60,558 nt of DNA from Macrostomum lignano (lineage: Eukaryota). The stretch spans positions 1 through 60,558 of the forward strand of contig NIVC01004106.1 in NCBI GenBank assembly GCA_002269645.1, read 5' to 3'. Of this stretch, positions 40,291 to 60,558 are shown piece by piece. A program made the position numbers and the translations under genes. Under the pieces are notes generated by a model. The model saw nothing but the letters and a program-made list of their open reading frames with translations. It was not told the DNA's origin and did no database searches. How positions within the stretch are numbered: position 1 is the stretch's first letter; each line of letters opens with the position of its first letter.

Positions 40291-40662
40291 ACATAGAAAC
40301 GATGCAAGATTATAATCTTGATATCATTTAAATGATTAATCATTTATCATGTAAATGTTCGCAGTGTAGACTGCACTTTTTTGTAAAAAAATTTACGTCG
40401 CAAAATGTTTTTGGTTCTGGAACACGCATTGAAAAATTAAAAGTCAATCTATCTAGTTAATCATCTATCTAATGGATCTATCTGATTTTATTCATGTAAT
40501 TTCCTATTAAATTTTTTAGCTATGTTCGTATATCGTTTACGATCGAGCTTCGTGTGTAATGAAAAAAACCGAAATATATTTCTCAAAAGTTATCCTGTAA
40601 ATTACAGCAAATTAACTGCACTAGCCAAACGAGTCAGCTCTACCCGAGCCAGCATTTTGAAT

Positions 40663-41714
40663 CAAGGACTTCTAGACTAACAGGACGTAAAACTCAAAGA
40701 TCGTGCAATTTTTTGGAGGCCACGATTTCCTGGAAAAAATACACTGCAAAGATAGGAAAAAATCAGTTTTTCGTCACAAAATCTGTGATTGTATTTGATC
40801 TGGGGCAGTGAAGACTACCATTCTTTTAATTTAACATGCACAATATGTTACTCTATTATATTTTCATATAGCTGTGTAGTGAAGTTTTCATTTTCATATT
40901 GTTTTCACTTTATTTCATAAGCCCAAAGTTGCAAACTCACAAGTGGCATTAGCCAAATATCAAATTCAAGAAAAGAAAAGCTATTCAAATTTGTAATATA
41001 ATAATATTTTTAGCCTTTAAAATAAAAATTATAAAAGGACTAATCAATGTTTTTTTCTTATAGATACCTAGTAAAAATGGTTAGGGCCTATTTTTGTGAT
41101 TAAGTCTATTCTTCTTAAATCTTAGTCCTAAATATAGGCTTGGCTTAAAAACTGATAATACAGCTTTCTCAAGCCTAGGTAACCAACCATATGAAACTAT
41201 TTATTGGTAATCTATATATAATAAAAAAATCTAAATATACTAATCTCTAAGTCATTGTCTAAATTGAATTACTTATTAGGCTAGATAGTGTAGTGATAGG
41301 TCTAGTTCTAGTAGGCCTAGGAATTAGTATAGTTACTAAACCTACAATAATAGCTTAAGACTAAGAGTACCTACATGCAATGTTTTTATACTTTATTTTA
41401 AAAAGAACAACACAAAAAGTTTGGCTAATGCCACTTGTGAGTTTGCAACTTTGGGCTTATGAAATAAAGTGAAAACAATATGAAAATGAAAACTTCACTA
41501 CACAGCTATAAGAAAATATAATAGAGTAACATATTGTGCATGTTAAATTAAAATAATGGTAGTCTTCACTGCCCCAGATCAAATACAATCACAGATTTTG
41601 TGACGAAAAACTGATTTTTTCCTATCTTTGCAGTGTATTTTTTCCAGGAAATCGTGGCCTCCAAAAAATTGCACGATCTTTGAGTTTTACGTCCTGTTAG
41701 TCTAGAAGTCCTTG
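40663..41714. mobile_element. Foldback MITE with ~295-bp TIRs, probably P superfamily
   Basis: Arms ~40663-40957 and ~41421-41714 are near-perfect inverted copies; termini CAAGG...CCTTG; 8-bp TSD ttttgaat at 40655-40662 and 41715-41722. Confidence 0.85.
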
Positions 41715-42281
41715 TTTTGAATATCTGAAAAAGAAGGTAGTGTTTGTTTTTCAGCTAGATTTCGTTACAGATAAATCAAAAATATTGTTTTTTTAACTGA
41801 TTAGTGTAGATTTATGTAATTTTATATCCAAAATATAGTGTTTGTAATATAGTGTGGTTGCTGTGAATTAGTAGACGTTTTTTTATCGTTTGTTAAAACT
41901 CGACAAATTCAAATATACGAAACTGTAAGACGTATATACGAGCTCGTAGAACCTCGCTCGAATCGAATACATTCGATCTCCAAGGTTCGGTTCGGCAATA
42001 CTCCCAGAGTCCCAATATGCGTGTTTCAGAGATTTGATACTTTACAAATCATTTTATATTTGTGACTATCATGATTACTTATGTATGTAATTAGTTAAAA
42101 AATTAAGTTGTTCACACTGGACTCATAACACAAAGGACTGGAAACTAGACTGATACTCTAGATTCTAGGCATACTTTGTGCATTGTATTCCTAAGTTAAA
42201 TGTTGTATGTCTAATTCCTTTTGAACTTTATTGTTAGGGAACAAGGGTAGATTGTGCTTTGTATGCTTTGTATATTCTGTA

Positions 42282-45276: not shown

Positions 45277-47718
45277 TTAATAAAAAGCAGCTTGATAGTG
45301 ATAGCAGTGACAATGAGTATGTGTCTGCAGGTGATATACTTAGTGAACCTACTAATTCAAGTAGTAATGGCTTGGCTCATACCAATGAAGACTTACAATT
45401 AGATTCAGTGAAGCTGCCTGCTGGGTCTGATGGCACAGACGACATTGAAAGTGAGACCTATTCAGATGATGACCCAGTGTCTGATCTAGATGCTGACAGT
45501 AACAGCGTTGACGAGGAGTACGAGTCTGCTGAAGAAGCAGATAATGAACCCACTCAGACGTCTACAGATTCGTTTGTTGATGGCTCATCTGTTTGTGACA
45601 ATTTAAACTGCGATTCACCAAAACTGCATGCTGGATCTGATGTTCCGCTAAAAGATGCAGTTATCATTTTAGAACGCTTTGCTATGGAGGCAAATTTGAC
45701 TAGAGAAAAAAGCGAAGCCTTGCTTAATATGTTGCACTATTTTATTCCAGGCTGCCGGCTTCCATGCACGTTGTATAAATTAGATGACTGTTTAAAAGAG
45801 CAGGCGTCTGTGATGGGCAGCACCGTGTGCCACATTGTGTGCAACAGCTGTGGACACACTTGCGTGGGTCGAGCTCAACCAAATAACTCGAGCTGTACAA
45901 ACTGCAACAAAAAAAACATTGGGAACTTTTGGATGTTCGATATTCGAGCGCAGCTTCGCTCTATGATTGAGTCTAGTAGACTGCTAGAGTCGGTGAAATT
46001 TCAACAAGATCTCATTAAGGAAACTAGTCCAGAAGTTCTGCACCTAGTTAACAGCGTACTTTATCGCGAGTTTCTTCAAACTGTACCAGTTGAAAGTAAA
46101 GATGATCTTACCTACACTTTGTGTAGCGACGGGTTTCCTGTATTTAGTACTGCACATGTCGAGGTGTGCCCTGTCTATTTATCTATTAACGAATTGGCAG
46201 ATGGTGTAAAGCACAAGTATGTTGTCCTGTGTGGTGTTTGGGCCGGTCGTGTCAAGGTAAATTCCGCTGGATTTCTGCCAGTCGTTGTCAAGGAATTAAA
46301 TGGCTTAGTGGACCCCGGTGTTGAGTACACTGATCATGGTGGTAGCTCTAGGATATTGCGTCTGCACCCATTACTAGCAATGTTCGACGCTCCAGCAAGA
46401 GCAGATGCACTGTGCTTTAAAAGATTCAACGCCGTTTTTGGCTGTGATAAGTGTCTCATTCAAACGATCCCCCAAACTCGTGGCGGAATTCAGACTGGCG
46501 GCCGACTCTATCCGCTCAACATAAAAAAGTCGACTATTTCGCAAGCCAGGTTGGAGGGGTGCGATCATCCTGAGGCCAGATGTGTTCCAGATACAGAAAA
46601 GCTGGCCGCTAAGCAAGTCGATAGGCATGGCCATGATGTCGTCTTTAAAACTAACTCAGACCTTCTTGGGGTCAAAGGGCCATCTCCGCTTCGTTCGCTG
46701 ACTGGCCTTGACTATATCCGCGGCACTCCGCCATGTTATCTACATCAATTCCTCAGTGGTGTAGTTCGCTGGCTACTTCTGCAACTGTTCTTGTTGCGGG
46801 GGCAGAAACCTGAACCCAGTGGCCGAAACCCAGACTTGCACAAACGACGCGACGCCATTGACAAGCATGTCATTGAGATTCGAGTTCCACATTGTGCTCA
46901 GCGACGACCACCAATAACGTTAAAGGAACTCAAGAATTTCCGTGGATATGAACTAGAAATGTGGCTTCTAATTTATGGACCAATGGTACTGGAATCATTT
47001 TTGCCTGGTGATTATTGGCACAACTTTGCAATGCTTTTAAGCGCAGCTTTCTGGCTCACATTTAACCGTACACCAATGACGGAACTTGAGGCCGTACATC
47101 GTACCCTGCGACACTTCCACTCTGCACTTCCAACATTGTACTCGCAGCGTGCGTTAACTTACAATGTGCATCAAGTCTGCCGACATGTCGTTGCACATGC
47201 TGGACCCATACACGCACAGTCGTCCGCTTTGTTCGAAGGGATGCACAGACGCATCGGAAGTCAGATACGAGGCTCGCGCAACATTGACATTCGATGGTGC
47301 TTTTAGATGGATGTCCGCTTTTCTACCGGCTGGCTTTAAAATTGAGGTTTACCAGCCAAACATGCGACATCGCCGAGTATTGTCGTGCTTCCTCGGACTT
47401 GTCGGGACCTCACCGACAAACTTTCACTTTGGCCGGCTGCAGTATCTGTACACAACGACTGACAACCGAGTCATGGCTAGTGTACAACTCTTGTCTGTCC
47501 ATCCGCCTCAGTTCGATCACCTGCCGGCACTGGTGGGTGTGTTATCAGACTCTCAAAGCCGAGGATGTGCGTACAGTCACGTGAGAAAGCTCAATTGCGA
47601 CCCCTTCGGCGATTTAGACGTCGTGAGTAACGTGCCTATTGCGGACATTGTTGGATGCTGTGCCATCAGTGGGGATTGCGTTGCATTAATGCCACATGCG
47701 CAGCATGGTACCGCTTAA
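45277..47718 (+). pseudogene. EnSpm/CACTA (CMC)-type DDE transposase exon, frameshifted near 47290
   Basis: Acidic N-terminus; CNSC..CTNC; LCSDGFPVF; VYLSINEL; FDAPARA..FNAVFGCDKC; HQFLSGV; TYNVHQ; SSALFEG; C-terminal FHFGRLQYLY in the next frame. Confidence 0.82.
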
Positions 47719-48490
47719 GCACTAGAACGTTTCAACTAACTATAATTTAGTGCACATCTAACCAGATTAAGAAGTTTTATTAAAGTCATAAAGTAGAAAA
47801 AAAAGAAAGACCAGGGGGACGCAGCACATTCCCTTGCCGTATCATCACCAACGCCTGGATCTGCGTTGCCCAGCCTGGGTGTGAACGTTCTAGCCCCCGG
47901 GAGGGCACATTCATCTCAAGAAGACAATCTATTTGGCTTTATCAGGCCCTTTTGTCTTTGTCCTTGAAATTATGTAATATTGTAATGAATGCACACGAAT
48001 GCTTTTATATTTAATCAATAATAGATACTCGTAAAATTAACCAAATTCTGATTACGAGCTTGTATGCAATAAGTAACGAACCCCTAACCTTAATGTTGCT
48101 ATGCTACAGTTTATTGCTACCAATGACACGGCTTCAATTTTCCTCATGTTAAACACGTGCTTTAGCAATATAAGTAACCTAAATTTTCTGGCAGCTACAG
48201 TACGTCATGGTCTCGAACTGTGTATGTGGTGAAATAGGTGAATAGGTTAGAAATTGAGGATCCAGGATTCTACGATCTACGATAAATGCTACCTATTCTA
48301 AACATGTGCTCAACTTTTTCAGTACAGCAATTTTTAGAAATGTTTTATAGTTAGAATGGCGAATGCTTTTGTAACTATTTTTGTATGTTGCTGGTATATG
48401 ACTATGCTATAGTAGTAGTAGGGCGAATTATGATACTGCCGCACTAGCACTGGCGAGATAGGCGGCAATGCAAATGTATAGGGAAAAATA

Positions 48491-48894
48491 CACTGCGGAG
48501 ATATGAGCCCTATCTCTGTGCATTGGGGACGGCTAAGCACTGCAGAGATATGAGCTCTATCTCTGTGCATTGGGGACGGCTAAGCACTGCAGAGATATGA
48601 GCTCTATCTCTGTGCATTGGGGACGGCTAAGCACTGCAGAGATATGAGCTCTATCTCTGTGCATTGGGGACGGCTAAGCACTGCAGAGATATGAGCTCTA
48701 TCTCTGTACATTGGGGACGGCTAAGCACTGCAGAGATATGAGCTCTATCTCTGTGCATTGGGGACGGCTAAGCACTGCAGAGATATGAGCTCTATCTCTG
48801 TGCATTGGGGACGGCTAAGCACTGCAGAGATATGAGCTCTATCTCTGTGCATTGGGGACGGCTAAGCACTGCAGAGATATGAGCTCTATCTCTG
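48491..48894 (+). repeat. 47-bp tandem repeat in the Polinton terminal region (~8.6 units)
   Basis: gcactgcagagatatgagctctatctctgtgcattggggacggctaa; internal cagagata/tatctctg stem. Confidence 0.95.
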
Positions 48895-48899
48895 CTTAA

Positions 48900-49072
48900 C
48901 ACTGGAGTGATAGGAGAAGAGGCGGCCTATCTCTTTACACTGGAGATGGTTAACACTGCAGAGATAGGAGGAGAGGCGGCCTATCTCTTTACACTGGAGA
49001 TGGTTAACACTGCAGAGATAGGAGGAGAGGCGGCCTATCTCTTTGCATTGGGGGTGGTTAACACTGCAGAGA
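48900..49072 (+). repeat. 54-bp related repeat (~3 units)
   Basis: cactgcagagatag-gaggagaggcggc-ctatctct units. Confidence 0.85.
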
Positions 49073-49116
49073 TAAGATGTTAATCTATGTAATTGGAAAT
49101 AATGTTTGCGAAAGAG

Positions 49117-49177
49117 CCAATCACAGAGCCCGGAGTGGGATGAGTGGTTTGGGGTGGTTCGGTCGAGGGTATATAAG
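49117..49177 (+). promoter_or_regulatory. CCAAT box plus TATA box (GTATATAAG) upstream of the PC4-like gene
   Basis: ccaat at 49117; gtatataag at 49169; ATG at 49282. Confidence 0.6.
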
Positions 49178-49281
49178 CCCCGAAATTGACAAGAAAGAAT
49201 TCTCAATTTTTCAAATCCAAAATTTCATCCGAACTTTTCCTCAGCTTTTAACTTTTGTGAGTTTTCAATTGCGAAAGGAAA

Positions 49282-50055
49282 ATGGACATCTGTGAAGGCT
49301 ATAAGGCACAAGTCCAGGAGTTTGAAGGACAAAAATTTATCGCTATTCGCAAGTTTTACCGACACGGCAGCACGGCAAGTCTGAAGCCAGGCGTCCCAGG
49401 ATTCAACCTGAATGTTCACCAATGGAAGAAATTGAAGGAGGTGAAACGCTCACTTGTGATTTCTGCACGCAACAACGAGCCCAAGGTCGTGAAACTCGGC
49501 TTCGATAAGTTTGTGGAAGTCAAAGGCGGCATCATTTGGCTCAAACGGCTGCCGGAAGATTGCTGCGAGGAGTTTTTGAGACGAAACGCCGTACCACTGA
49601 CTCCGCCGCTGTGGCAGAAGCTCTGGAAAATCGCCTCCTGGATCGACGGTCAGCTGGTGGCTCCCTTGAGGAACTCAATGCAGTACGAGCTGGAGTCTGA
49701 TGAGGAAGAGGAGGAAGAGGACAAGAAGCTCAAGTTGGAGGCTGACCAGGACACGAAGCCCATAATGGAGACTGATGAGGGCGGAGAGCATGCTGATGAC
49801 GAGGACGTTAGCTCGCCCACAAGGTCGCGCATTGTGACTGAGCCTATCACATCCACACCGATACCTTTGGTTGATTCTGATGCTGGACTGCTTCCGCAGC
49901 GGGACACCAACCTTGAGGAAGATCCGGTGTGGTATCAGTTCAGGGCGCATGCAGCGGCTTCGACGGTGAGCAGCAGCAGCAGAAAGCGAAAGCTGCCATT
50001 TCAACTTCGTCGGCAGGACGCGATGAGGCTGCCCAATGTTCGCTTTGATAACTGA
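49282..50055 (+). CDS. PC4/Sub1-like ssDNA-binding protein, probably two PC4 repeats, with an acidic tail
   Basis: YKAQVQEFEGQKFIAIRKFY..LKPGVPGFNLNVHQWKKLKE parallels the PC4 core (RYVSVRDFKGK..IDIREYW..KPGRKGISLNPEQWSQLKE); weaker second copy LGFDKFVEV..VPLTPPLWQKL. Confidence 0.75.
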   Translation: MDICEGYKAQVQEFEGQKFIAIRKFYRHGSTASLKPGVPGFNLNVHQWKKLKEVKRSLVISARNNEPKVVKLGFDKFVEVKGGIIWLKRLPEDCCEEFLRRNAVPLTPPLWQKLWKIASWIDGQLVAPLRNSMQYELESDEEEEEEDKKLKLEADQDTKPIMETDEGGEHADDEDVSSPTRSRIVTEPITSTPIPLVDSDAGLLPQRDTNLEEDPVWYQFRAHAAASTVSSSSRKRKLPFQLRRQDAMRLPNVRFDN

Positions 50056-50381
50056 ACAGCTAGAATGCTTTGAATGCATTGGACTAACTAAATTACTTTT
50101 AGCTTGCACATGATTATCCAGCCTATATCTGACGGCACTATGCTGTTTTTTATCTCTGCTATTTCTGAAATGCTGGTGTGCGAGTGTTTTAGTGTTCGTT
50201 TTTATGGATTGTTTGCTTTCGGAAAATACACCGACTGTTACGATGTTAGAGGTTTCAATCTGACAGTAATAAATTAATTTGCCACTCGTTTCTCTATCAT
50301 TTAATTGGAATATAAATTTCTACTTAAGAAAAAATACTGTACAGCTAGAGCAGGTGGATAGGCACGTATCTTGATAAACCC

Positions 50382-51452
50382 ATGATGGAGAAAATTTATT
50401 TGAAACCTGAGCAACCGGCTAGTTTTTCTTGTGCCTCAAAGTTGCTGCATGAAGTGAGGCAAAGAGGTGATCGAATATCTGCAAAGAGCATTGAGCAGTG
50501 GCTCAGCGAGCAGCAAGTGCACACTCTGCACAAGCCAGCTAGGAGGCGATATCCAAGGGCCCCAATCATAGTGCGCGCAATCGATGATCAGTGGGAACTT
50601 GACTTAGTGGAAATGATTCCATTCGCAAAGCATAATAAAGGCTACAAATATATTCTCACATGCATTGACGTGCTCTCAAAATGTGCTTGGGCCAAGGCAC
50701 TGAAAAATAAATCTGCTGCAGAAGTGAAGTCAGCATTCGAGAGCATACTGAGAAGTTCAAAGCGACAGCCACGCACAGTTCGCACAGATCAGGGGAAGGA
50801 ATTTATCAACTCCACTTTCCGTCAATACTGCATTGACAGAGGGATTCTGGCTTTCCCAACTAACAGCGAGCAGAAGGCGGCTGTCATTGAGCGATGGAAT
50901 CGAACTCTGAAAAGTAGAATGTGGCGCTACTTCACCTACAAGAGCACACTGCACTGGCTTGATGTGCTGCCTAAGCTGGTAAAATCCTACAACAATACCT
51001 ACCACAGAAGCATCAAAATGGCACCCACTAGTGTCTGCAAAGAGAATGAATCTGAAGTGTGGATGAACCTGTACGATGGAAAAGCAGTCGAGACTCTAGA
51101 AAAATTAAAGGAGCCTAAGTTCGCTGAAAACCAGTCAGTGAGAATTTCCAATGCTCCACGGATATTCAAAAAGGGATACAAAGCGAGCTGGAGTGAGGAA
51201 GTGTACACCGTGGTGAGCAGAGCCCCAAAACATTATCCCTACATGTACAAGATTAAAGACATGCGGGGGCAAGAGATTCGAGGACTCTTCCATGAGCACG
51301 AGCTGCAGGCTGTCCCGGACTCACAGCGGCTGTATGTGATTGAGAAGATCCTGAAAACGGAGAAGCGGAAGGGAAAAATTCGCTATCTGGTGAAATGGGC
51401 GGGCTACGACTCGACTGGCTGGGTGGATGAAAAAGACTTAAGAAAGGTTTAG
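50382..51452 (+). CDS. Retroviral-like (rve) DDE integrase with C-terminal chromodomain
   Basis: WELDLVEM, CIDVLSK, RTDQGKEF, IERWNRTLK; chromodomain YVIEKIL..YLVKWAGY..WV. Confidence 0.95.
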   Translation: MMEKIYLKPEQPASFSCASKLLHEVRQRGDRISAKSIEQWLSEQQVHTLHKPARRRYPRAPIIVRAIDDQWELDLVEMIPFAKHNKGYKYILTCIDVLSKCAWAKALKNKSAAEVKSAFESILRSSKRQPRTVRTDQGKEFINSTFRQYCIDRGILAFPTNSEQKAAVIERWNRTLKSRMWRYFTYKSTLHWLDVLPKLVKSYNNTYHRSIKMAPTSVCKENESEVWMNLYDGKAVETLEKLKEPKFAENQSVRISNAPRIFKKGYKASWSEEVYTVVSRAPKHYPYMYKIKDMRGQEIRGLFHEHELQAVPDSQRLYVIEKILKTEKRKGKIRYLVKWAGYDSTGWVDEKDLRKV

Positions 51453-51489
51453 CTTTGGCACATCCCTCATCTTGAAGTTTATCATTATA

Positions 51490-52299
51490 ATGCGAACTAT
51501 TTTGATTAACAGTGAGCATGCTGAAGGTACTCCTTGTGACTTTAATTTTTACCTGCCTTCACCTATTTACTTGGATCGAAATGTGGACTATGAGGCAGGT
51601 CTGGCTGAAATCCATCTGCCTGCTGCATGGTTCAATGTTGACGAGCCTTACTGCTTCACTGTCTCAGATGGAAGAGAGCATGAGGCCCTGGTTCTTCAAC
51701 CCGGACGCTTTGCTAGAGTGGAGGAGCTGGTGGAGCGCCTGAATGAGCTGCTGGCCAACTCTGATTCGCTGTTCTTTGATGCAATGAGTGACAGGGAGTC
51801 TGAGATGGAGGCTGATGAGTCCGGCCTGATGGGGCGTAGTGGCAACAGGGAATTCGGTATGAAGTTCGAAATCCACAACTCACGAACTGTGGTGCACAAC
51901 AACACTGCGAGAGCAGAGCTGTTTCTTCCATCTAGTAAAATTCTGCATTGGCTGGGATTTGGAAACCAGGCTGTGAAAATCCAGCCAGGGAGCCGCGTGT
52001 CCGAGCATTGCACTGGCTGCCCGCGCACCAGCTTAATCAATGTGCACTGCAGTATCGTTGAGTCAACTAATTGCAACTGGAGCTCCTTGTTGAGAACAGT
52101 TGGAATGAAAGCCGGCATTGAATGGGGCAACTATCAAACAAAAATATTTAAGAAAACAATATTCTTCCCGATTCAACGAATCAGTCTTCTTCACAGCATT
52201 CGAGTTCAGCTCCGTGACATCTATGGTTGCCCACTGATTGCACAGACTCACAGCCCTGTTCTGCTTACAGTTCAAATTCAGGAGAAACGCATTCAATGA
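51490..52299 (+). CDS. Minor capsid protein (penton)
   Basis: FNFYLPSPIYL..YEAGLAEIHLPAAWFNV; LINVHCSIVES; SIRVQLRDIYG; typical Polinton mCP pattern. Confidence 0.82.
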   Translation: MRTILINSEHAEGTPCDFNFYLPSPIYLDRNVDYEAGLAEIHLPAAWFNVDEPYCFTVSDGREHEALVLQPGRFARVEELVERLNELLANSDSLFFDAMSDRESEMEADESGLMGRSGNREFGMKFEIHNSRTVVHNNTARAELFLPSSKILHWLGFGNQAVKIQPGSRVSEHCTGCPRTSLINVHCSIVESTNCNWSSLLRTVGMKAGIEWGNYQTKIFKKTIFFPIQRISLLHSIRVQLRDIYGCPLIAQTHSPVLLTVQIQEKRIQ

Positions 52300-52673
52300 A
52301 CTACCAGCAGCTAATCCAGCAATATTCGGGGGTGAGGACAGGACACGAAAAGCCTGCACTCTATGGCTGTGGGAGCTTCCCAGGGATCATGACATACCAG
52401 CCTCCGCCAGCGGCTATATCATCATCATCAGCCTCGACGCTTAGCAACGTCAGGCGCAAAAGAAATACTGAAGCAAGTCCGAAACGATTGAAGAAAAAGA
52501 AGGGCACCCGAAAGGCAACTGGTGGAAATCGCAGTAAGAGGTCGAGCAAGGCTAGTGGGAAAAAGCTTAAGAATAGGAAGACGAAAGCAAAGAAGAATAG
52601 AGCAGGCGGAGGAAAGCGAAAGCAAAAAGTCAGCAAGAAAACTGTGAAACGCGTGCTCGACTCTCTGTCATAG
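52296..52673 (+). CDS. Small basic pVII-like core/DNA-binding protein
   Basis: ATG 52296 overlaps the penton stop; LYGCG motif then a K/R-rich C-terminal half; lies between penton and hexon. Confidence 0.65.
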   Translation: MNYQQLIQQYSGVRTGHEKPALYGCGSFPGIMTYQPPPAAISSSSASTLSNVRRKRNTEASPKRLKKKKGTRKATGGNRSKRSSKASGKKLKNRKTKAKKNRAGGGKRKQKVSKKTVKRVLDSLS

Positions 52674-52675
52674 AC

Positions 52676-53958
52676 ATGGCTTACGGATTCAATCCCAGAC
52701 TTGATTTATTTAAGACGCCCGTTCTACAAACCTGCATTGAAAAAGCTACTTATGTTGATATTCACCCAGTTAATTCCATTGTTGCAAACTCTCCCATTGA
52801 ATTTGACTGCCACCAATCTGCCGATGAATACACAGATCTGCTGAATTCTTTTCTTTATATTCGCTGCCGCCTTGTGAGACTGGATGGGGGTTTGCTGAGG
52901 GAGGATGTTCGAGATGGAGATGGCATCATCACCGAGCGCAGAGACAGTGACGTGCACCCAGAAAATTTTGTTCTGTCTACAGCCTTCTCAGATGTAATTG
53001 TGAGCATTAACCAGCGAGTGGTGTCTGGTGGAGACCAGCTCTATCCCTACCATGCGTACTTCAAAGCACTAATGAGCTCATCCGATGCCCAGCAACTAAA
53101 ACTTTACCCTGCTGGCTTCCTGGAGCCGAACTCGGCAGCTGAAGAGCACACGGAGAGCCACAGGGAATCCCAATGGATGGAGTATGCGGGGCCGCTCTTC
53201 AGCGATGTTTTCCAGTGCCCAGTGTTTCTGCTAAGCAATCTGCACCTGCACATCAAACTGGTCCCCAGCGATGGGGCCTTTGCCATCAGAACCCCGAATG
53301 CAAACAACGCGGCATACCGAATGGAAATCTCTCACAGCATTCTGCATCTTCGCCGAGTCAAAGTGATGCCCCACATCAGCCTGGCCCATGAGCAGGGGCT
53401 GACAAACCAAAATGCACTGTATCCCATCGAGCGAACTGAAATGCAGAACTTCATCCTACCCCAGGGTATTCAGTCAAAAAACATTGAAGGATTCACTCAT
53501 GGAAAATTGCCGAAGTTTATCATGCTGGCCTTCGTGAGCCACCGAGCATTCAACGGTCATCATCACGCGAGCCCGTTCCAGTTCCAGAGCTTCAACCTTA
53601 GCCGATTGGCTCTAAAGAAAGGTGGGGAAACCGTGTGCCACGGCGCCTTCACACCTGAAAACAATTCCTTTGTAAGAGAATACTTGCACTACCTGAAAAG
53701 CTGTCAATCTGCAAGCCACACAAACTCGGTCCGTGGATCCCCTACCAGCTCTTCTCCAACAACAGCACGGTGTTTGCATTCGATCTCACACCCGAGGGAG
53801 CGGCTCTGTGGTACGGACAGAAGGAGGGCAACCTGCGGCTGGAGATTCGCTTCCAACAGGCTCTGAATGAAGCGGTGTCCCTGATTGCTATGTGCCTGTA
53901 TGACTCGCTGATTGAGGTCACCAAGCACCGAGAGCTTTTGCTGGACTATTCATCTTAA
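52676..53958 (+). CDS. Major capsid protein (double jelly-roll, hexon-like); one frameshift near 53720
   Basis: LDLF..P; PIEF; LYPYHAYF; LYPIERTE; GKLPKFIMLAFVSHRAFNG..PFQF; second frame VFAFDLTP..GNLRLEIRF. Confidence 0.9.
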
Positions 53959-53963
53959 TTGAC

Positions 53964-54476
53964 ATGGATGCAATTCAACTACTTAATCTCGCCAGAAAAT
54001 TTTTGCCTTACCAAAAATTTCTCATAGTTACTTTACATTTGCGCTATAAAAATTCTCTGCCCTTGAATGTAAAAAGAAAATTTAGATCATCAATTTCCTT
54101 TGAAAACAAGTTTGTTTTTGTCCTACTTCAGCACAATGGCTCATTTGGTCACTGGGTGGTGTGCTATGTTGGGCAAGGAAATCGCATTGAGTTGTTCAAC
54201 TCCCTCGGCTGGGAACCTGAAATTTTATCTTTGGTTTATAATTTGTTTCGAGAGATTAAAACAACTGGCTTTTGGCTCCGAAGCAATATAAACAGAGTTC
54301 AATGTGCTAACTCTAATAAATGCGGAGTGTTTTGCATCTATTTTGCTTATCAAAAGTTTCTGTTCAATCGGTCATTTGAGGGGATTTTGAAGCATTTGCA
54401 TGCTAATGAAAAAAATCATTTGAATGATAGAATCTTACAGAGGTTTGAAGCCAACTTAAGAAAAAGATGTCCGTGA
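53964..54476 (+). CDS. Adenain/Ulp1-like maturation cysteine protease
   Basis: GHWV, ELFNSLG, VQ..SNKCGVFC: the H, (D to N), Q, C order of Polinton PRO. Confidence 0.8.
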   Translation: MDAIQLLNLARKFLPYQKFLIVTLHLRYKNSLPLNVKRKFRSSISFENKFVFVLLQHNGSFGHWVVCYVGQGNRIELFNSLGWEPEILSLVYNLFREIKTTGFWLRSNINRVQCANSNKCGVFCIYFAYQKFLFNRSFEGILKHLHANEKNHLNDRILQRFEANLRKRCP

Positions 54477-54499
54477 TTTCTAATATTTATGCATTAAAC

Positions 54500-55144
54500 A
54501 TGGGAGAAAAGCAAGTTTGCTACGATATCCGCCTCAGGCAGGGAAGCTGCATGATTGTCTGCGGGCCCACCAATGCAGGAAAAACAACCTTTGTCAAACA
54601 CCTGATCCAGTACAGAGACGTCATGTTTGATGTGAAGCCTGGCAGAGTTCTGTGGTACTATGGGATCTCACAGGCAGGCCATGCAGAACTGAGCAGCCTA
54701 GGTGTGCAGCTGCGCCAGGGATTTCCCACCAACATCGAGGCAGCACTTAGGCCCAATGACCTGGTTGTTTTCGATGACTTAATAGAGGAAACTTCAAACT
54801 CTGCTTCAATGCGAAATTTTTTCACAGGAATCGCACATCACTTGCCGTGCTTTTTGGTGATGCTGACTCAGAATATATTTTTCAAGGGAAAAGAGTCGCG
54901 AACAATGAGCTTGAATGTAATGTATTTAGCTATCTTGAAAAACCCCAGAGACCAGCTGCAGATTGCAGCACTGGGCAGGCAGTGCTTTACAGAGAAGCCC
55001 GGCTTTCTGCTGTCAGTGTTCAAGCACGTGACCGCGCAGGGCAGGGGAGCTACCTGTTCCTGATTTTCACCATCAACTCCCGATGAGCTGCGAGTGCGGG
55101 CCAGAATTTTACCCAACCAGCGACCCCATCTTGTATTTGCTTAA
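54500..55144 (+). CDS. A32/FtsK-like genome packaging ATPase; three single-base losses at ~55045-55075
   Basis: Walker A GPTNAGKT; Walker B VVFDD; LTQNIF; KNPRD; restored tail YLFLDFHPSTPDELRVR ends at TAA 55142-55144 in the original frame. Confidence 0.92.
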
Positions 55145-55185
55145 GAAAGTGAAGCTTGTTTTTATCAGCTATTGTTTTCATCGCT

Positions 55186-55524
55186 ATGGAAGTGCTTGAT
55201 TCACATGCAAGTCTTTTTGCGGTTCTTGCGTCACCTAAATATACCGTGCGCTTCAAGCGGCTGTTGATAAAAAATTGTCCAAAAGAAGTGCGTTATTTTC
55301 TTGTCGAGGCCTGCCATAATCTCTTACAAAACAATCTATCGTTTTCGCTCGATGAAAAAGCTGTTCTTGCAAAGTCAAAAGAGATAATTCGAAAAATTAC
55401 TCACAAAAGAAGAAAGACAGACTTGTTGAAGGCTGGCTTCATCAAAATACTCCCGATTCTGCTTAAGCTGGTAAAGAAGAAGAAGCAAAATGAACAAATT
55501 TTCAGAAATGGTTCTGATTCCTAA
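55186..55524 (+). CDS. Conserved small basic Polinton protein with an amphipathic C-terminal helix
   Basis: EACHNLLQNNLSFS..L.K.K.IIRKI..KAGFIKILPILL pattern recurrent in Polintons; position after the ATPase. Confidence 0.65.
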   Translation: MEVLDSHASLFAVLASPKYTVRFKRLLIKNCPKEVRYFLVEACHNLLQNNLSFSLDEKAVLAKSKEIIRKITHKRRKTDLLKAGFIKILPILLKLVKKKKQNEQIFRNGSDS

Positions 55525-56110
55525 AGCAGAGTATGAGATGTTGATGCAGAATTTGAAGCCAAATGAGACTACCACTGAAGCTGACTTGAAGCAGGCTCAG
55601 AAGAAATGCGATGACATCTTGTATGCCGAGGATTGTCCAGAAGATGTGAAAACCGCCATGTACCAAAGTGCAATGCAAAGTTTGCTGGCCAAGCGCAAGC
55701 ACGCTGGAAAAGAAGGAGCACGCAATACTGAAGCCAAGTTGATGAAAACAGAGACACCCCAGATAAGCACCTGGGAAGAGAAGATCAGCAAGTCGGTGCC
55801 ACAGAAATTCAAAACCAGGGCTCGCAGTCTGTGGACGATCCTGTCCACCAATCCAGAGCTGATTCGAGTTTGTGAAAACGGGGAGGTGGAAATCGCAGGC
55901 ACGTCAATCCCTTCCTCAAACATACTGGACTTGATTCAGCACACAGTGAGGGATTCGCCATGTGAGCGTGAACCAGTTGGGTGGAACGAGTTCATCGATT
56001 TTCTGCAGCAGAAAAAGCTTAATGTTCCGCTTTCCGCTATTGGTAAATCAGTTAAGAAGAAAATGGCAACCAGCAGAGGGGTGAACTGGAGAAAGAACAG
56101 GAGAGTCTAG
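55490..56110 (+). CDS. Conserved Polinton hypothetical protein
   Basis: MVLIP start; NGEV.I.G..IPSSNILDL..EPVGWNEF..L..NVPLSAIG pattern typical of Polinton core ORFs. Confidence 0.7.
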   Translation: MNKFSEMVLIPKAEYEMLMQNLKPNETTTEADLKQAQKKCDDILYAEDCPEDVKTAMYQSAMQSLLAKRKHAGKEGARNTEAKLMKTETPQISTWEEKISKSVPQKFKTRARSLWTILSTNPELIRVCENGEVEIAGTSIPSSNILDLIQHTVRDSPCEREPVGWNEFIDFLQQKKLNVPLSAIGKSVKKKMATSRGVNWRKNRRV

Positions 56111-56160
56111 TCAAGGGGTACGGGAGCAACACAGCCTGGCTGAAACTGCCTGCCAGAAAA

Positions 56161-56169
56161 GTATATAAG
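56161..56169 (+). promoter_or_regulatory. TATA box (GTATATAAG) upstream of the DEDD-like and TBP-like genes
   Basis: Identical 9-mer to 49169-49177, 50 nt before ATG 56211. Confidence 0.55.
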
Positions 56170-56210
56170 AAGGTGGACTGACTCCGAAATTTTCGAAGGA
56201 AAGCTGCATC

Positions 56211-56690
56211 ATGAACTACATTGACTTCCAAGGATTCCGTGCAACAGCACAAGCAAAAAATTTGTTGTGAAGGAGTTGGCAGTTGTTCAAATCAGAGCGG
56301 GGAGCTACCGCATTGCTCACCATGTGTACGCACCTCCGTATCCATGGGAGAGAGTCTCACCTGACATGCGAGTTTACTACAGACAGCTATCTAAGAGTCT
56401 GCACCAGTTTAAGTGGAATGATGGAACCCGTCCGTACATGGAACTGGCGGAAGACATTCTGAGCATTGCCAGTGGTCCGATCTGGTCAAATGGGGAAAGG
56501 AAGTCGATTTTTCTGACTGAGCTGCTTGGAAGACAGGTTTATAACCTAGAAGATTTGGGAGCACCCTCGACTGAAGATTCAGATACTGGCTGTGCAGTGA
56601 GAAATTCGTTGCTGCACTACAGTTGGCTTAAGCCAAAGTTCTGCATCAACTTAAGAAGCGAGCAGTGTCCGTGGCACACGAGCAGTAAAG
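56211..56690 (+). CDS. DEDD-exonuclease-like Polinton accessory protein; frameshift in an A run near 56258; C-terminal end uncertain
   Basis: MNYIDFQGF..KFVVKELAV..HVYAPPYPW..HQFKWNDG..Y..VYNLEDLG..CAVRN. Confidence 0.6.
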
Positions 56691-56729
56691 TTGGCAGAAG
56701 CAGATTTGGTGAAGAAGTTGACGATCGAA

Positions 56730-57302
56730 ATGAGCCCACCAGCTACAGCCCTAAGAGTGACCAATCTGGTTGGCGGAGTAGATCTGAGACTGGATGGTGG
56801 CAGGGGCGCTCAGCTGCCTCTACGGGAACTGGCTCTCAGCATGGCTCATGTGATCTACCGGCCCGTCTGGCCCCGGGTGCTCATCAAGCGGATGCGGATT
56901 CCCAGAGTGACTCTCCTACTCTACCCTACTGGGCAACTGAGCATCTGCGGTGCCAAGACCCACGCAGACGCCAAAAGGGCTGCCCGTCGCTTCGTGGCTA
57001 TGCTGCATCGGAGAGTGCCGGCTCAACTGCTGCCTCATCAAACAATTTTGTGTTCGAATTAAAACTATTACTGCTCATGGACAGCTCCCAGTTCATTCCG
57101 CACTTTCCTTATTAATGTTAAAATCAATTATCCCAAACGCCGAATATGAACCAGAATCCTTTTCTGCTTTAATTTTCAATTTAAACTTTTGTAAATGTCT
57201 GCTTTTTCACAGCGGCTCTTTGTTCTCAGTGGAGCTCGGTCCTTGAATCAGTTGCATACCGATAGCATGCGTCTACTCAATGTAGTTCTTTCCATTGAAT
57301 AA
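56730..57302 (+). CDS. TATA-binding-protein (TBP)-like protein, both repeats, split by two compensating frameshifts
   Basis: Repeat 1: VTNLVGGVDL..YRPVWPRVLIKRMRIPRVTLLLYPTGQLSICGAKTHADAKRAARRF. Repeat 2: RIKTITAHG..AEYEPESFSALIF..KCLLFHSG..VLSGARS. Stop TAA 57300-57302 overlaps AATAAA. Confidence 0.85.
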
Positions 57303-57874
57303 AAATAAAGTCAAGTCAAGCAATTTGCCGCAAATATTTCAATGATTAGTGAAAAGTGAATAAAAGGATAAACTTGTATTCTTTACATTCATTTTCCCAG
57401 GCAGACAGCTATGGAACACTTCAAAAACGTATTTAGCCATCACCAAAAGTATCGCAAAACGCATATCAAATCCGAAAGTAAACAATACTACCATCGTTAT
57501 AACAAACGATGTGCACCGAGAGAAGAGAAATAGAAAAGTGATAGAGAAAATATGATTAAAACGCTGATTGAATTTACAGGAACAATTTGTGTCAGATAAA
57601 AACCAAAAACACATTTTAAATAGTAACAAAGCAAAAAAAATGAATTAATATTGTATGAGCGCACTTGCCACAGCTTTATAAAAAGTAAAACTTAAATTGA
57701 TATCAATATTTCACGCCGCAAAAACAAATTGACAGCTAAATCTAGCGCAATTAGCCAAGCATACAAATTTGTAAAAGTTACTACATGCAAGTCACTACAT
57801 TTAAAACAGAATTTGGCAATTTAAACAACTCTAAAAGCAAGAAAAAGTACTAAACAGTCTGTTAAACACCCGCA

Positions 57875-60558
57875 CTAGACCAGTCGGATGCGCTTCAGCT
57901 GATCGTGGGATGCGGGCGTCAGCGCATAGTGTCCGTAGGGCAGGCTTCGATTACTGCTAAGCCACACTCGCTTATCCTCCCACACCGATAGGCTTCTTTT
58001 CTCCATGACCGACGTGAAGATTTCGTGTTTCTTGGAAACAATCGCTGTCATGGCAACCATCTGCTCTTGCTTGGACTCGAACGCGTCGACATAGTTCGCA
58101 TGCGAAATTTGCTGTCTTACTACTGACTGCTTACGCCTTTGGCAGTTTTCTTGATCTTTGCACTCGAATTCTCGGCAGGGAGAAACGAATAAAGTTTTGG
58201 ACGCAAAAGAATCCACTCCTGGTAAATTCCACCAGCAGATTCATCTTTAACGCAGCCCAGCTTTCCTTTTAACTCTTCAGAGAAATGCGGATGGTCTCGA
58301 GAATAGTTGGATGTGTCAAGTATTTTTCCTCTCTAAGCTTCGGGATTACCTCCGATGTTAAATCATGATTCTTGAAAGCTAGAAAAAATGAGTCAGTATC
58401 ACCTCCGCAAAGCATCATGTCTCTGGAACCGTCTGAATGACAGAACAGCGGTCGAGCCTGTCATATAGTAGGCTGTACATGGCCATCTTAGAGAGATCGA
58501 GAACTGCCTGGCCAACGAAAATGGCCTTGTCAAGCGTGACTTTATCTTTTTTGAGCTGAAAAATGCTCAACGACTCATTGATAATCGAGAATGCGGCACA
58601 GTTTGGTCGAGAGGTGCAAGTTTCTGCTTGAGTCTGGTTAGTGCAAATTCGAACATCGCATCTTTTTCGAACGTTCTCCATAGTTTTTCCAAAGAGAGAA
58701 TTGTTTTCAATTTGTAAAAATCCTTAGCAAACTCGGAAGTTGCCAAAGCTCTTTTTCATTGTTGCTGGCAATGTACGGCGCGAAAATATTTTCCTGCTTG
58801 AACGAAATCATTTTTTTGACGCACTTGATCCGCATTCCGTGTTGCAGGTAAAATCTTAAAACGGTGCTGTGAACTACGTAAGATCCTTGTCGGTACAGGT
58901 GAGTAGAAGCTTCTCCGTTGCTTGAAACTTAGCTTCAGCATTGCCGTTCGCTGTTCAGCAATCTCTTTCCATAGTTCGGCCATGTACGGCGAGAATTGAT
59001 CTGGCTGTGGTTTTGATTTTTCAGGTGCAAACGGTAACTCCTGAGTCGAATCGTGAATCTCAGCTGGGTATTCTAGATCGAGTTGAACAAGGTAGGCGAT
59101 CTCGGCTTCTGGATTGAGTGACAGAAACCGATTGGAGTCCCAGAACTGGATTTCTGTTCCGGTACCCACCTGAATTCCCTGCATGGAAGCGGAAGCGACA
59201 GGGCAAAGCCATACAAGTTGTTCATATCGATCGGCATGAGGCTTACACTCTCTTGCTGATCATCATAACCTGGCAAGCTAGGATTATTACCTTTGACGCA
59301 ATGCACATTAATGAAGGACATGCCTCCTCGTATTCCTTCTCAAACAGATGATACATGTCAGCATCAGTCAGCTGCTCTAGAACCACTCCAGTCGACTTTA
59401 GAGCTGAGTCGTAAGACAAACCAGGAGTAGTAAAGTAGTGTACCGGATCCAATCCGTCCTCTTTCAGACTGGCCTGTCGGAATGTCTCGAAAATGTCAGC
59501 CAGCTGCCTTACATCCATTTCAAGATAGGCGAGCATATAATCCTTCAAACTTTTGCATTGAAATGCCGCCCATGCCGCTCTTGCTCTATTGTAGTCGTCG
59601 TCGGAAATTCCCCTATCGGAAAGTCGATTAAAAAAGCATCTTTAGGCGGCAAAACCGACTGCTCGAGAATCTCAAATCCTGTGAGGTAATCATATGGGAA
59701 GATCCCTTTTTTTCGAAGTAGCTCTCTTGAAGATGTGGTCTTGACTCAAGCATTTGCATTGTCAGCTTGCATTCAGCTTCGGGAAGATTAGCAAACAAAT
59801 TGGACAAACTTCCTTCAAAAGCAGAGCGAGTCGATGAACTGAATTGTAAACATGATTGGCACAACTTTTCCGTTCTTTACGTAACTTGCAACGGGAATTC
59901 CGCCTTAGTGACAAGTATCGCTCGATGATTGCGGAACAACACTAAGTTTCCAATTTTTCATGCTCCCAAGCGCAGTGGAAAGTAGAAGATGAAGGTCGTA
60001 GCCACCTAAGTTGTGAAAAACCAGGGGCAGAAACCGCGTCGGAGCTGTGCTCGCAGGTTGCATTCTTGACATGCTGCACCTTTGTACTGTCCATTTAAAT
60101 GATCGTGGTCAAAATGTTTATCTGTAGAACTTTTAAAGTTCTTCTTGCAGTAGTGACATACCTCAGCAGAATTGAAATCATCCATGACGGTCGCGGATGA
60201 TCGGTCAGCCGGCTGGTGGCTATGCTTCTGGTTCCAGTGAAATATATCCTGAGCCAGGCTTTCAGAGATTTGAGAAACCAAGGATACACTCATCAGGGTC
60301 CGCATTGCAAAAGACCTTGTACATGTCTCCTTCTGGCCTAAGCGGAGGTCCTGTCATGCCTTCACGAGGCACTGCAAGAAAACTGCTGCACATGGTTCAT
60401 GCTTTGAGATCAGGTTAGCAGGGTCTGTGTTCGCTCGCAAAATGGCTTCCAGGTCGGCATAGGCAACGAATGGTGGACTGACAGTGTTTTGACAGTTTCG
60501 GAACTTATTATTTCATTCTGTCCTGGAACTGGAAGCGTTTCTTTGACAGGATTTTCTG
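57875..60558 (-). pseudogene. Protein-primed DNA polymerase B with an endonuclease-VII-like insert; many frameshifts; N-terminus outside the window
   Basis: CHYC..DHDHLNGQYKGAACQECN; HNL.GYDLH; YLEMDV; motif A DMNNLYG; motif B KLK(N)NSLFGKTMENVRKR; motif C GGDTDSFF; C-terminal EDKR..SLPYGH. Confidence 0.93.

Follow-up and report, generated by a model that had tools for sequence, protein, structure and literature searches.

The locus and the question it raises

Polintons carry no RNA polymerase, and the question we address is how the timing of their capsid genes is controlled. We analysed a 60,558-nt stretch of the Macrostomum lignano genome (hereafter the window), one region of which forms the left 12 kb of a Polinton that is young and present in many copies. 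Its left terminal inverted repeat (TIR) matches the right end of another copy (G000:C100) in inverted orientation, at 99% over 325 nt, and is followed by 47-bp tandem repeats that extend to ~48960. The TIRs begin with AG at both ends (left end in the window, right end in copy C100), and the element encodes a retroviral-type integrase, recognized by Pfam, and an ORF that we take, from its motifs, to be a protein-primed family B polymerase (pPolB), as in Polintons/Mavericks. The polymerase ORF is 1096–1152 aa long in other copies and matches an ORF of a viral contig at 29% over 1148 aa. We refer to the family of the window's Polinton as family A, and to a sister family with 26–57% protein identity as family B; the L081 subfamily is ~50% different at fourfold sites. 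Gene starts were picked by us from ORFs and homology. The main features are as follows:

48414..48737, + strand: left terminal inverted repeat, beginning AGTAGTAGGG at 48414
49282..50055, + strand: PC4-like ORF (two tandem PC4-type repeats, aa 1–126; acidic low-complexity tail)
50382..51452, + strand: retroviral-type integrase with chromodomain (PF00665, E 2e-13; PF00385, E 1e-5)
51490..52299, + strand: putative minor capsid (penton) ORF
52296..52673, + strand: basic, presumably core-like ORF
52676..53959, + strand: putative major capsid ORF (window frame broken near 53730)
53964..54476, + strand: adenovirus-type cysteine protease (PF00770, E 1e-4)
54467..55063, + strand: packaging-type P-loop ATPase (weak Pox_A32 and AAA matches)
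55186..55524, + strand: conserved ORF112
55490..56181, + strand: conserved ORF230 (window frame broken at ~56080–56110)
56211..57062, + strand: DEDD-like ORF (window frame broken near 56235)
56730..57302, + strand: two-repeat TBP homolog (window frame broken near 57050)
57298..57309, + strand: two AATAAA hexamers at the block end
57875..60558, - strand: putative pPolB (frame broken at many points; cut by the contig end)

The genes between the PC4-like and TBP-like genes are tightly packed, as an earlier note on this DNA had described, and AATAAA is rare within the block. The capsid ORFs, including the penton ORF, had no match in a Pfam scan; we presume the penton label from where the ORF lies in the usual gene order of Polintons, the major capsid label from the same considerations together with ORF size, and the core-like label likewise as a presumption. 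The putative major capsid ORF is 427 aa long in other copies, and none of its 27 homologs at E ≤ 1e-20 has a Pfam family. Searched against viral contigs, the capsid query gave no matches as a single sequence and one contig as an alignment; in that contig, which may be incomplete, 1/6 sense HTAAGAA sites lies before a start, and no TBP was matched. The packaging ATPase likely starts at 54500, and its 3' end is unlike that of other copies near 55050. The DEDD-like ORF is 278–283 aa long when intact (283 aa in 18/30 copies), and over its final ~110 codons it shares DNA with TBP repeat 1, read in a different frame; this overlap stays open. Similar proteins in the Atlas are unnamed ones from arthropods, and Maelstrom, at 0.87, is a lead.

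TIRs, pPolB, integrase, protease, ATPase and putative capsid genes are common to Polintons/Mavericks (adintoviruses; Starrett et al. 2021, PMC8502044). The words "promoter" and "PC4" do not occur in the main text of that paper, and in its available text we found no description of a box, of a pairing of TBP and box, or of a cascade as discussed below.

The element encodes a tandem PC4-type protein and a two-repeat TBP homolog

Both genes that had been recognized from the sequence are real. The PC4-like ORF matches PF02229 (E 5e-8) and human PC4 (phmmer, E 3e-5). Its model (pLDDT 86.5) contains the four-strand-plus-helix unit twice, and the protein is predicted, from the secondary structure of that model, to be a tandem single-strand-binding fold. 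The PC4/Sub1 coactivator carries an N-terminal regulatory region before its DNA-binding domain; in the element protein the domain begins at residue 2–8, and no such region precedes it. The four-strand-plus-helix unit is common to PC4/Sub1 and the phage T5 PC4 homolog (PF02229; available text of PMC7549692), whereas the element protein has two units per chain (type I, intramolecular, predicted) and an acidic tail. In family B, PC4 lies downstream on the opposite strand and shares a terminal TATA promoter with pPolB; from its placement, PC4 appears to travel with a terminal, polymerase-type promoter.

The TBP-like gene matches PF00352 at E 1e-12 in the window, and twice, at E 8e-25, in other copies; the full two-repeat frame of 190 aa is present in 27/30 copies. 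The model (pLDDT 86.2) superimposes on human TBP with Z 19.1 and an rmsd of 2.2 over 173 residues. With its two repeats and predicted saddle fold, the protein belongs to the TBP family (PF00352), at ~30% identity to cellular TBP. Database models P0008–P0010 and P0014, which fuse TBP to its neighbours, are likely annotation artefacts. TBP relatives were found at 32 metagenome loci (23–33% identity); none was found in viral contigs.

Canonical TBP has four intercalating Phe residues and a symmetric Asn pair, and its acidic repeat-2 stirrup serves TFIIB. We assigned residue roles in the element TBPs on the assumption that known TBP structures apply. In lineage 1, that of the window's element, the Phe set is P/Y/F/F and the Asn pair is N/T. 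The protein shares with cellular TBP and TRF2/TLF the acidic stirrup, the repeat-1 Asn and Phe/Tyr at 3/4 Phe positions, and differs from them in that the first Phe is Pro and the repeat-2 Asn and Val are Thr. It also differs in having no N-terminal extension, in its long separate branch, and in being encoded by an intronless, multi-copy gene within a mobile element. The stirrup, E140-P-E142-x-F144, is invariant in 12/12 lineage 1 rows, and among sequences as little as 30% identical the changed DNA face varies little or not at all.

A shared PC4/TBP promoter is not supported

The earlier note had proposed that the PC4-like and TBP-like genes bracket the block as an initiation module, each unit preceded by the 9-mer GTATATAAG and, shortly after it, by CCGAAATT. 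Both 9-mers exist, at 49169 and 56161 only, a count reached by 4/100 shuffles. They belong to two sites:

49170..49177, + strand: consensus-type TATA box TATATAAG before PC4 (TATA kept in 14/15 diverged copies)
56161..56171, + strand: second GTATATAAG(AA), a single site combining a consensus TATA (56162) with a box TATAAGAA (56164)

The PC4 TATA is kept across at least five unalignable contexts, and is likely an early promoter read by the host TBP. The second 9-mer is not intergenic; it lies in the last codons of ORF230, whose frame is broken in the window copy, and reads V-Y-K at the 3' end of this 230-aa ORF in 13/30 close copies. It is 570 nt upstream of the TBP start, ahead of the overlapping DEDD-like ORF. 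Among 20 diverged copies, the site reads GTATATAAG in 9 and CTATTTAAG in 8, the remaining 3 having other variants, and family B has CTATAAGAAG at this place; judged from these variants, the second 9-mer is a form of the [ACT]TAAGAA box described below. The CCGAAATT matches, at 49180 and 56184, lie at different distances behind the core (2 and 14 nt), are at chance level (1.8 expected; 56/100 shuffles reach 2), and the one before PC4 is kept in 0/15 diverged copies. Conservation upstream of orthologous genes thus fails for CCGAAATT, which we rejected as a signal, and is variable for the second 9-mer. TATAAAT, also pointed out before the integrase, is present at 50311 and recurs in 1/15 diverged copies, in another context; it too was rejected.

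A co-regulated early module of PC4 and TBP with a GTATATAAG/CCGAAATT promoter would fit the presence of both genes in families A and B, and the 56162 site, a match to consensus TATA that agrees with the window's PC4 box in all of 9 nt. We nevertheless regard it as very unlikely: TAAGAA stays where the second site has become CTATTTAAG, the family B PC4 promoter is common to pPolB, and the PC4 protein begins directly with its DNA-binding repeats and ends in an acidic tail. The two genes co-occur in families A and B only; in the other TBP-bearing lineages described below, 0/10 loci gave a PC4 match, in stretches that may be shorter than a complete element. In one viral contig we found a weak PC4-like ORF but nothing matching TBP. 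The PC4 homolog of phage T5 has been linked to replication (available text of PMC7549692), and a role as replication single-strand-binding protein, which the earlier note had offered as its own alternative, appears more likely for the element PC4 than that of a coactivator.

A sense-oriented box precedes most genes of the block

The sequence CTTAAGAA occurs at 6 sites in the block (shuffle mean 0.23; 0/500 shuffles reach 6). This six-fold repetition was overlooked in the earlier note. The broader motif [ACT]TAAGAA has 9 sense and 0 antisense sites in 50150–57300, all nine of them 44–159 nt upstream of a block gene start. All nine fall within 5–180 nt before starts, a zone covering only 25% of block sequence; a binomial test, made post hoc, gives p 3e-6. 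The box precedes 8/10 genes of the integrase-capsid-packaging block, and is absent from PC4 and from the pPolB coding region; this distribution resembles that of the non-canonical late boxes of the herpesvirus vPIC system. Of the box sites in other copies, 8/10 in the L081 subfamily and 7/7 in family B lie before a start. Sites in the window include:

50323..50330, + strand: CTTAAGAA, intergenic, before the integrase (TTAAG[AC] kept in 11/15 diverged copies, four unalignable contexts)
51437..51444, + strand: CTTAAGAA within the integrase 3' end, before the putative minor capsid gene
52147..52154, + strand: variant TTTAAGAA, 149 nt upstream of the basic core-like ORF (kept in 9/9 copies having that ORF; equivalent site in family B)
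52566..52573, + strand: CTTAAGAA before the putative major capsid gene
54455..54462, + strand: CTTAAGAA before the packaging ATPase
55140..55147, + strand: CTTAAGAA, intergenic, before ORF112 (kept in 10/10 copies, three contexts)
56650..56657, + strand: CTTAAGAA, 80 nt upstream of the TBP start (kept in 10/10 copies)

The protease gene has no box upstream in family A or B, and ORF230 is preceded by box variants only. Many boxes sit in Lys/Arg-rich coding 3' ends, and the sense bias may be partly a coding effect; the box is also retained in non-coding, unalignable contexts and in differing reading frames. The family A box CTTAAGAA differs from the family B box CTATAAGAA, although the TBPs of the two families share the changed face. 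No initiator-like signal was seen 25–35 nt behind the 49 boxes examined, all at starts that had been chosen because a box precedes them.

Three TBP lineages in one genome each have their own box

Two further Polinton lineages in the genome each have a far-diverged TBP-like frame and their own box. The lineage 2 box, TATAAATA, is upstream in 6/6 and 6/6 sites, and the lineage 3 box, TATAAGC, in 5/6, 3/4, 4/5 and 6/6. None of the three boxes ([ACT]TAAGAA, TATAAATA, TATAAGC) was found upstream of starts in another lineage. Pfam and tblastn detected the TBP-like frame in 9/10 lineage 2 and 3 loci, the tenth being cut by the contig start; Pfam TBP E values are 1.2e-4 and 2.2e-7. An Atlas search with the ORF before the lineage 2 TBP gave no usable match. 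In a quick tree of 140 rows, in which long branches meet at the deep nodes of the element TBPs, each lineage forms one clade (SH-aLRT 98–100), apart from the host TBP. All three lineages have lost the first repeat-1 Phe and changed the repeat-2 Asn and Val, each has further changes of its own, and all retain the (E/D)xE-F stirrup. TAAG is included in the lineage 1 and 3 boxes and absent from that of lineage 2, and sense-only boxes lie 34–165 nt ahead of most starts.

Against the host TATA consensus, which we take to be TATAWAWR, TATAAATA fits, TATAAGAA and TATAAGC are off at few positions, and CTTAAGAA is off at three. The host TBP could therefore read the lineage 2 box. Because box and TBP are inherited together, the three lineages give few independent changes. 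We consider it an evenly balanced question whether TBP and box have co-diverged into at least three mutually insulated pairs in one host, each element running its own late programme with a single minimal TBP.

A candidate element-encoded late programme

The reading that we favour, and consider probable on the comparative evidence, is that the element TBP, with host RNA polymerase II, reads a lineage-specific late box before the block genes. The earlier idea that the structural genes are activated by the element TBP, in an early/late order, gains strong comparative support, with [ACT]TAAGAA, rather than the 9-mer then named, as the motif. Host TBP would first read consensus TATA boxes that lie immediately internal to the TIRs, at PC4 and the right-end accessory ORF in family A and at PC4 and pPolB in family B, and possibly also the dual site at 56162. 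Element TBP would be made next, in family B from its own consensus TATAAAAG; in family A the box upstream of the TBP gene would give positive feedback. With its changed DNA-facing surface the element TBP would bind the [ACT]TAAGAA box and recruit host TFIIB and RNA polymerase II, so that the block is transcribed as late genes. Nested transcripts would start ~25–30 nt behind each box and likely end at the AATAAA pair at 57298–57309. PC4 would likely bind the single strands that pPolB displaces during synthesis, with a possible side role in promoter opening. Binding, start sites and timing are inferred in this scheme; what the analysis shows are the genes with their predicted folds, where the boxes lie, how well they are conserved and how they pair with lineages.

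The boxes could instead be TATA variants for the host TBP or TRF2-like protein, with the element TBP acting elsewhere, for example in sequestering TFIIB or in host or early repression. The match of TATAAATA to the presumed host consensus, the nearness of TATAAGAA and TATAAGC to it, the presence of both a TBP gene and a TRF2-like gene in the host, and the loss of a DNA-intercalating Phe from the element TBP all agree with this view. We consider it unlikely, since a different fixed box in each lineage without cross-use in one nucleus is left unexplained, CTTAAGAA departs from the consensus, and the changed DNA face shows conservation where decay might have been expected. Baculovirus-type late promoters contain TAAG, and virophages borrow giant-virus promoters; a late promoter for a helper virus RNA polymerase, with initiation inside the box, would be consistent with TAAG in two of the boxes and with their sense-only placement before most starts. 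The absence of TAAG from the lineage 2 box, the three helpers that three boxes would require, and the retention in each lineage of a TBP-fold protein with an acidic stirrup make this highly improbable. The motif might also be an RNA-processing or translation signal of a polycistronic transcript (3'-end formation, trans-splicing, re-initiation), or partly a by-product of basic C-terminal codons, given that genes abut or overlap, several boxes are in coding ends and AATAAA is scarce within the block. A host RNA signal should, however, be common to all lineages, which the box is not, and the box is kept outside coding sequence and across reading frames; we give this explanation very little credence.

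Reading by the element TBP would resemble the late system of beta- and gamma-herpesviruses, whose TBP-like proteins bind TATT late boxes (available text of PMC4893493, here and below). The likeness of the vPIC (BcRF1/ORF24/UL87) to the Polinton system lies in a virus TBP-like protein, a non-canonical box at structural genes and, as we infer for the Polinton, host Pol II; we draw it as an analogy. The vPIC TBP-like domain has ~10% identity and acts in a six-protein complex, whereas the Polinton protein is a bare ~190-aa core at ~30%, and the Polinton boxes (TAAGAA, TATAAATA, TATAAGC) differ from TATT. EBV BcRF1 bound TATA and TATT alike in vitro (PMC4893493), and a viral TBP therefore need not alone carry specificity. 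Among ORF112, ORF230 and the DEDD-like ORF, we found no Pfam match to vPIC partners. Virophages and PLVs are likewise small dsDNA elements with a short motif before many genes, their promoters being common to the helper giant virus; by contrast, the Polinton carries its own candidate reader, and its motif differs by lineage in one host.

A conserved box ahead of every structural gene, together with a candidate reader encoded by the element itself, makes the question of a late phase in animal Polintons directly testable, and three reader/box pairs in one genome offer natural variants for studying the sequence preference of the TBP saddle. If TBP and box have indeed diverged in step, nature would here have supplied a series of TBPs with altered specificity, and the elements would seem to have a regulated particle-forming phase. 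The pairs also suggest that a herpesvirus-like solution was arrived at independently in a small virus-like element.

We also looked at coverage in 8 runs (assembled contigs; RNA status a guess or unknown), which gave no start, end or splice-leader signal and weigh neither for nor against transcription. Six cover 30/30 bins and span the intergenic parts and the DNA upstream of the PC4 TATA, the other two cover 10 and 4 bins, and one run, from a single study, dips at 57124–57891.

The box upstream of the structural genes

The element is a Polinton of ~17 kb whose left part lies at 48414–60558; the contig end falls inside the polymerase gene. Its left terminal repeat is 99% identical over 325 nt to the right end of another copy (G000:C100). 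Family A, the family of this element, is young: among 40 scored of 151 candidates, the TBP region gave 33 full-length matches at 99–100%. An NCBI hypothetical protein of Macrostomum lignano is 99% identical to an element protein, and the several frame breaks in the window copy are missing from most other copies. Transposase-like ORFs of another element (45684–47718; DUF1258, E 2e-4, below cut-off) lie beside the insertion, and a 298-nt inverted repeat pair (40660–41717; 99% complementary, 462 nt apart) is possibly a small non-autonomous element. The gene order is:

Plus strand: PC4, integrase, putative minor capsid, core-like ORF, putative major capsid, protease, ATPase, ORF112, ORF230, DEDD-like ORF, TBP
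Minus strand, after TBP: protein-primed family B polymerase (pPolB)

The capsid, core and PolB labels are our assumptions from size, order and characteristic motifs; a Pfam scan of the capsid ORFs gave no match.

Within 50201–57310, CTTAAGAA occurs six times (shuffle mean 0.23; 0/500 shuffles reach six), and TTAAGAA has eight sense sites and none on the opposite strand. The pattern [ACT]TAAGAA has nine sense and no antisense sites, all nine falling within 5–180 nt (actual 44–159) upstream of a start and covering 8/10 genes (placement p = 3e-6, post hoc). It is absent from PC4 and from 3459 nt of pPolB coding sequence. The box before the integrase is kept in 11/15 diverged copies, in four unalignable contexts, and those before ORF112 and TBP in 10/10 copies. 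In L081, a subfamily copy ~50% different at fourfold sites, 8/10 box sites are upstream of starts.

Family B, a sister family with ~25 near-full matches at 94–100%, encodes proteins 26–57% identical to those of family A, in the following order:

pPolB, integrase, capsid block, ORF110, ORF198, DEDD-like ORF, TBP, then PC4 on the opposite strand

[ACT]TAAGAA has seven sense and no antisense sites in family B, and 7/7 lie upstream of starts, including CTATAAGAAG before the DEDD-like ORF. The consensus TATAAAAG is found 53 nt upstream of TBP.

An earlier note had proposed that GTATATAAG, followed shortly by CCGAAATT, is a promoter motif common to the PC4-like and TBP-like genes. The first motif does occur twice (4/100 shuffles), but the second is near expectation (two occurrences versus 1.8), with unequal spacing behind GTATATAAG at the two sites. 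We retrieved 40 regions surrounding diverged TBP matches. The site upstream of PC4 is likely an ordinary TATA promoter, because 14/15 copies keep the TATA box, across at least five contexts that cannot be aligned, and 0/15 keep CCGAAATT. Across 20 copies, the second 9-mer site reads GTATATAAG in nine, CTATTTAAG in eight and other variants in three; it codes for the end of ORF230 in 13/30 close copies, and it contains the block box in register (TATAAGAA at 56164). The observation of the note is thereby confirmed in part, and its early/late switch is partly supported, through a different motif, [ACT]TAAGAA, and without PC4. Copy C100 has a third TATATAAG at its right end, upstream of an accessory ORF (L068:6485-7888). 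This ORF of 468 aa has a Cys/His-rich start and Ala-Pro repeats, and gave no convincing match in a Pfam scan.

The element TBP

The TBP frame is 190 aa long in 27/30 copies and holds two PF00352 repeats (E 8e-25). Its predicted model (pLDDT 86.2) matches human TBP with Z 19.1 and rmsd 2.2 over 173 residues; the best non-TBP row has Z 8.0. Among 1.84 billion proteins searched with a profile, eight matched at E<=1e-30, one of them an ordinary plant TBP model. In a quick tree of 140 rows, the TBPs of families A and B (lineage 1) and five environmental proteins formed one clade (SH-aLRT 99), separate from host TBP and a host TRF2-like protein. The host TBP (218 aa; L090) and TRF2-like paralog (390 aa; L091) have three assembly matches each.

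Compared with host TBP, lineage 1 carries Pro for the first Phe, Tyr for the second Phe, and Thr for both the repeat-2 Asn and the repeat-2 Val, and retains E-P-E-x-F. Across 12 rows, with identities as low as 30%, these states show no or almost no variation; we presume the roles of these residues from known TBP structures.

In both families (window 56730–57062; L116:9213-9601), the DEDD-like frame runs on without a stop through 106–128 codons of TBP repeat 1, and its overlapping tail is Ser/Gly/Arg-rich. Each copy has 12–18 overlap codons where a silent T would create a stop, and none has such a T; in TBP repeat 2, taken for comparison, 3–9 of 10–18 risk codons carry one. Fourfold-site change is lower within the overlap.

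Other TBP lineages in the genome

Further Polinton families came up in a search with the capsid, and we took 10 loci from them. A far-diverged TBP-like frame is present in 9/10, the tenth locus being cut by the contig start. Pfam TBP matched in C4 (E 1.2e-4) and C424 (E 2.2e-7) and gave no match in C384; tblastn also linked the frames. They fall into two additional lineages (SH-aLRT 100 and 98). In the 6/10 loci scored for boxes, the sites upstream of a start were:

Lineage 2, TATAAATA: C4 6/6 sites, C10 6/6 sites
Lineage 3, TATAAGC: C424 5/6, C889 3/4, C362 4/5, C2158 6/6

These boxes were derived from the very loci on which they were scored, which makes their p values post hoc as well. Among the loci scored, no lineage's box occurs upstream of a start in another lineage; the looser pattern [AT]TAAGC[AG] has one such occurrence, in C4. 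The first Phe is lost in all three TBP lineages, as are the Asn and Val of repeat 2; all three keep the acidic stirrup, and they differ among themselves at other DNA-facing positions.

Lineage 2 elements (L163:2765-5614) have a Fic-domain ORF (E 8e-14). The ORF that precedes their TBP-like frame also overlaps it and has the consensus TATATAAGG upstream; no ATG stands near the start of the TBP-like frame. Lineage 3 (L171, L173, L175, L179, L181) has its TBP-like gene upstream of pPolB; between pPolB and ATPase lie ORFs that we take, from their motifs, to be dUTPase-like and parvovirus-type phospholipase A2-like.

A proposed transcription mechanism

From the gene content, the predicted folds, the placement and conservation of the box, and the pairing of each TBP lineage with a single box, we infer how the element may be transcribed. 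Host TBP would fire the terminal TATA promoters; element TBP would then bind the box of its own lineage and recruit host TFIIB and Pol II, giving nested late transcripts that would likely end at 57298–57309. Against this model, the lineage 2 box matches the host consensus, co-inheritance of box and TBP limits the number of independent changes, and sequencing runs available as assembled contigs yielded no start sites. Of 49 box-to-ATG distances, all taken at starts chosen because they have a box, 22 are 42–58 nt and three are <30 nt, which fits a TATA-like position without proving it; no initiator signal was seen behind these 49 boxes.

By analogy, the Polinton TBP and box may work like the vTBP/TATT system of beta- and gamma-herpesviruses, as outlined in PMC4893493. 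No partner proteins were identified for the Polinton and its box binding is a prediction, so we do not class it as a member of that system. In print, a MELD virus already bears a TBP label (PMC8502044; preprint 10.1101/697771). A literature search of titles and abstract starts, covering few subscription journals, found no description of a Polinton TBP together with a box before structural genes.

PC4 and the polymerase

The module of PC4 and TBP envisaged by the earlier note is not supported. PC4 goes with the polymerase, not with TBP: in family B, an identical terminal promoter sequence precedes PC4 and pPolB at the two ends. The 10 lineage 2 and 3 loci, whose stretches may not span whole elements, gave no PC4 match. 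For the first 130 residues of the PC4-like protein, the predicted model (pLDDT 86.5) shows two units, each of four strands plus a helix; an acidic tail comes after them. A review lists PC4-like domains of an intramolecular type I and links a phage T5 PC4 homolog to replication (PMC7549692). A viral contig with Polinton genes (L162) has a weak PC4-like ORF (E 0.003) and no TBP match; TATA-like or TAAG sites lie 34–45 nt upstream of three of its genes. Outside the studied families, five weak PC4 matches occur in G000:C1753:139563-211908, three of them ~3.4 kb apart.
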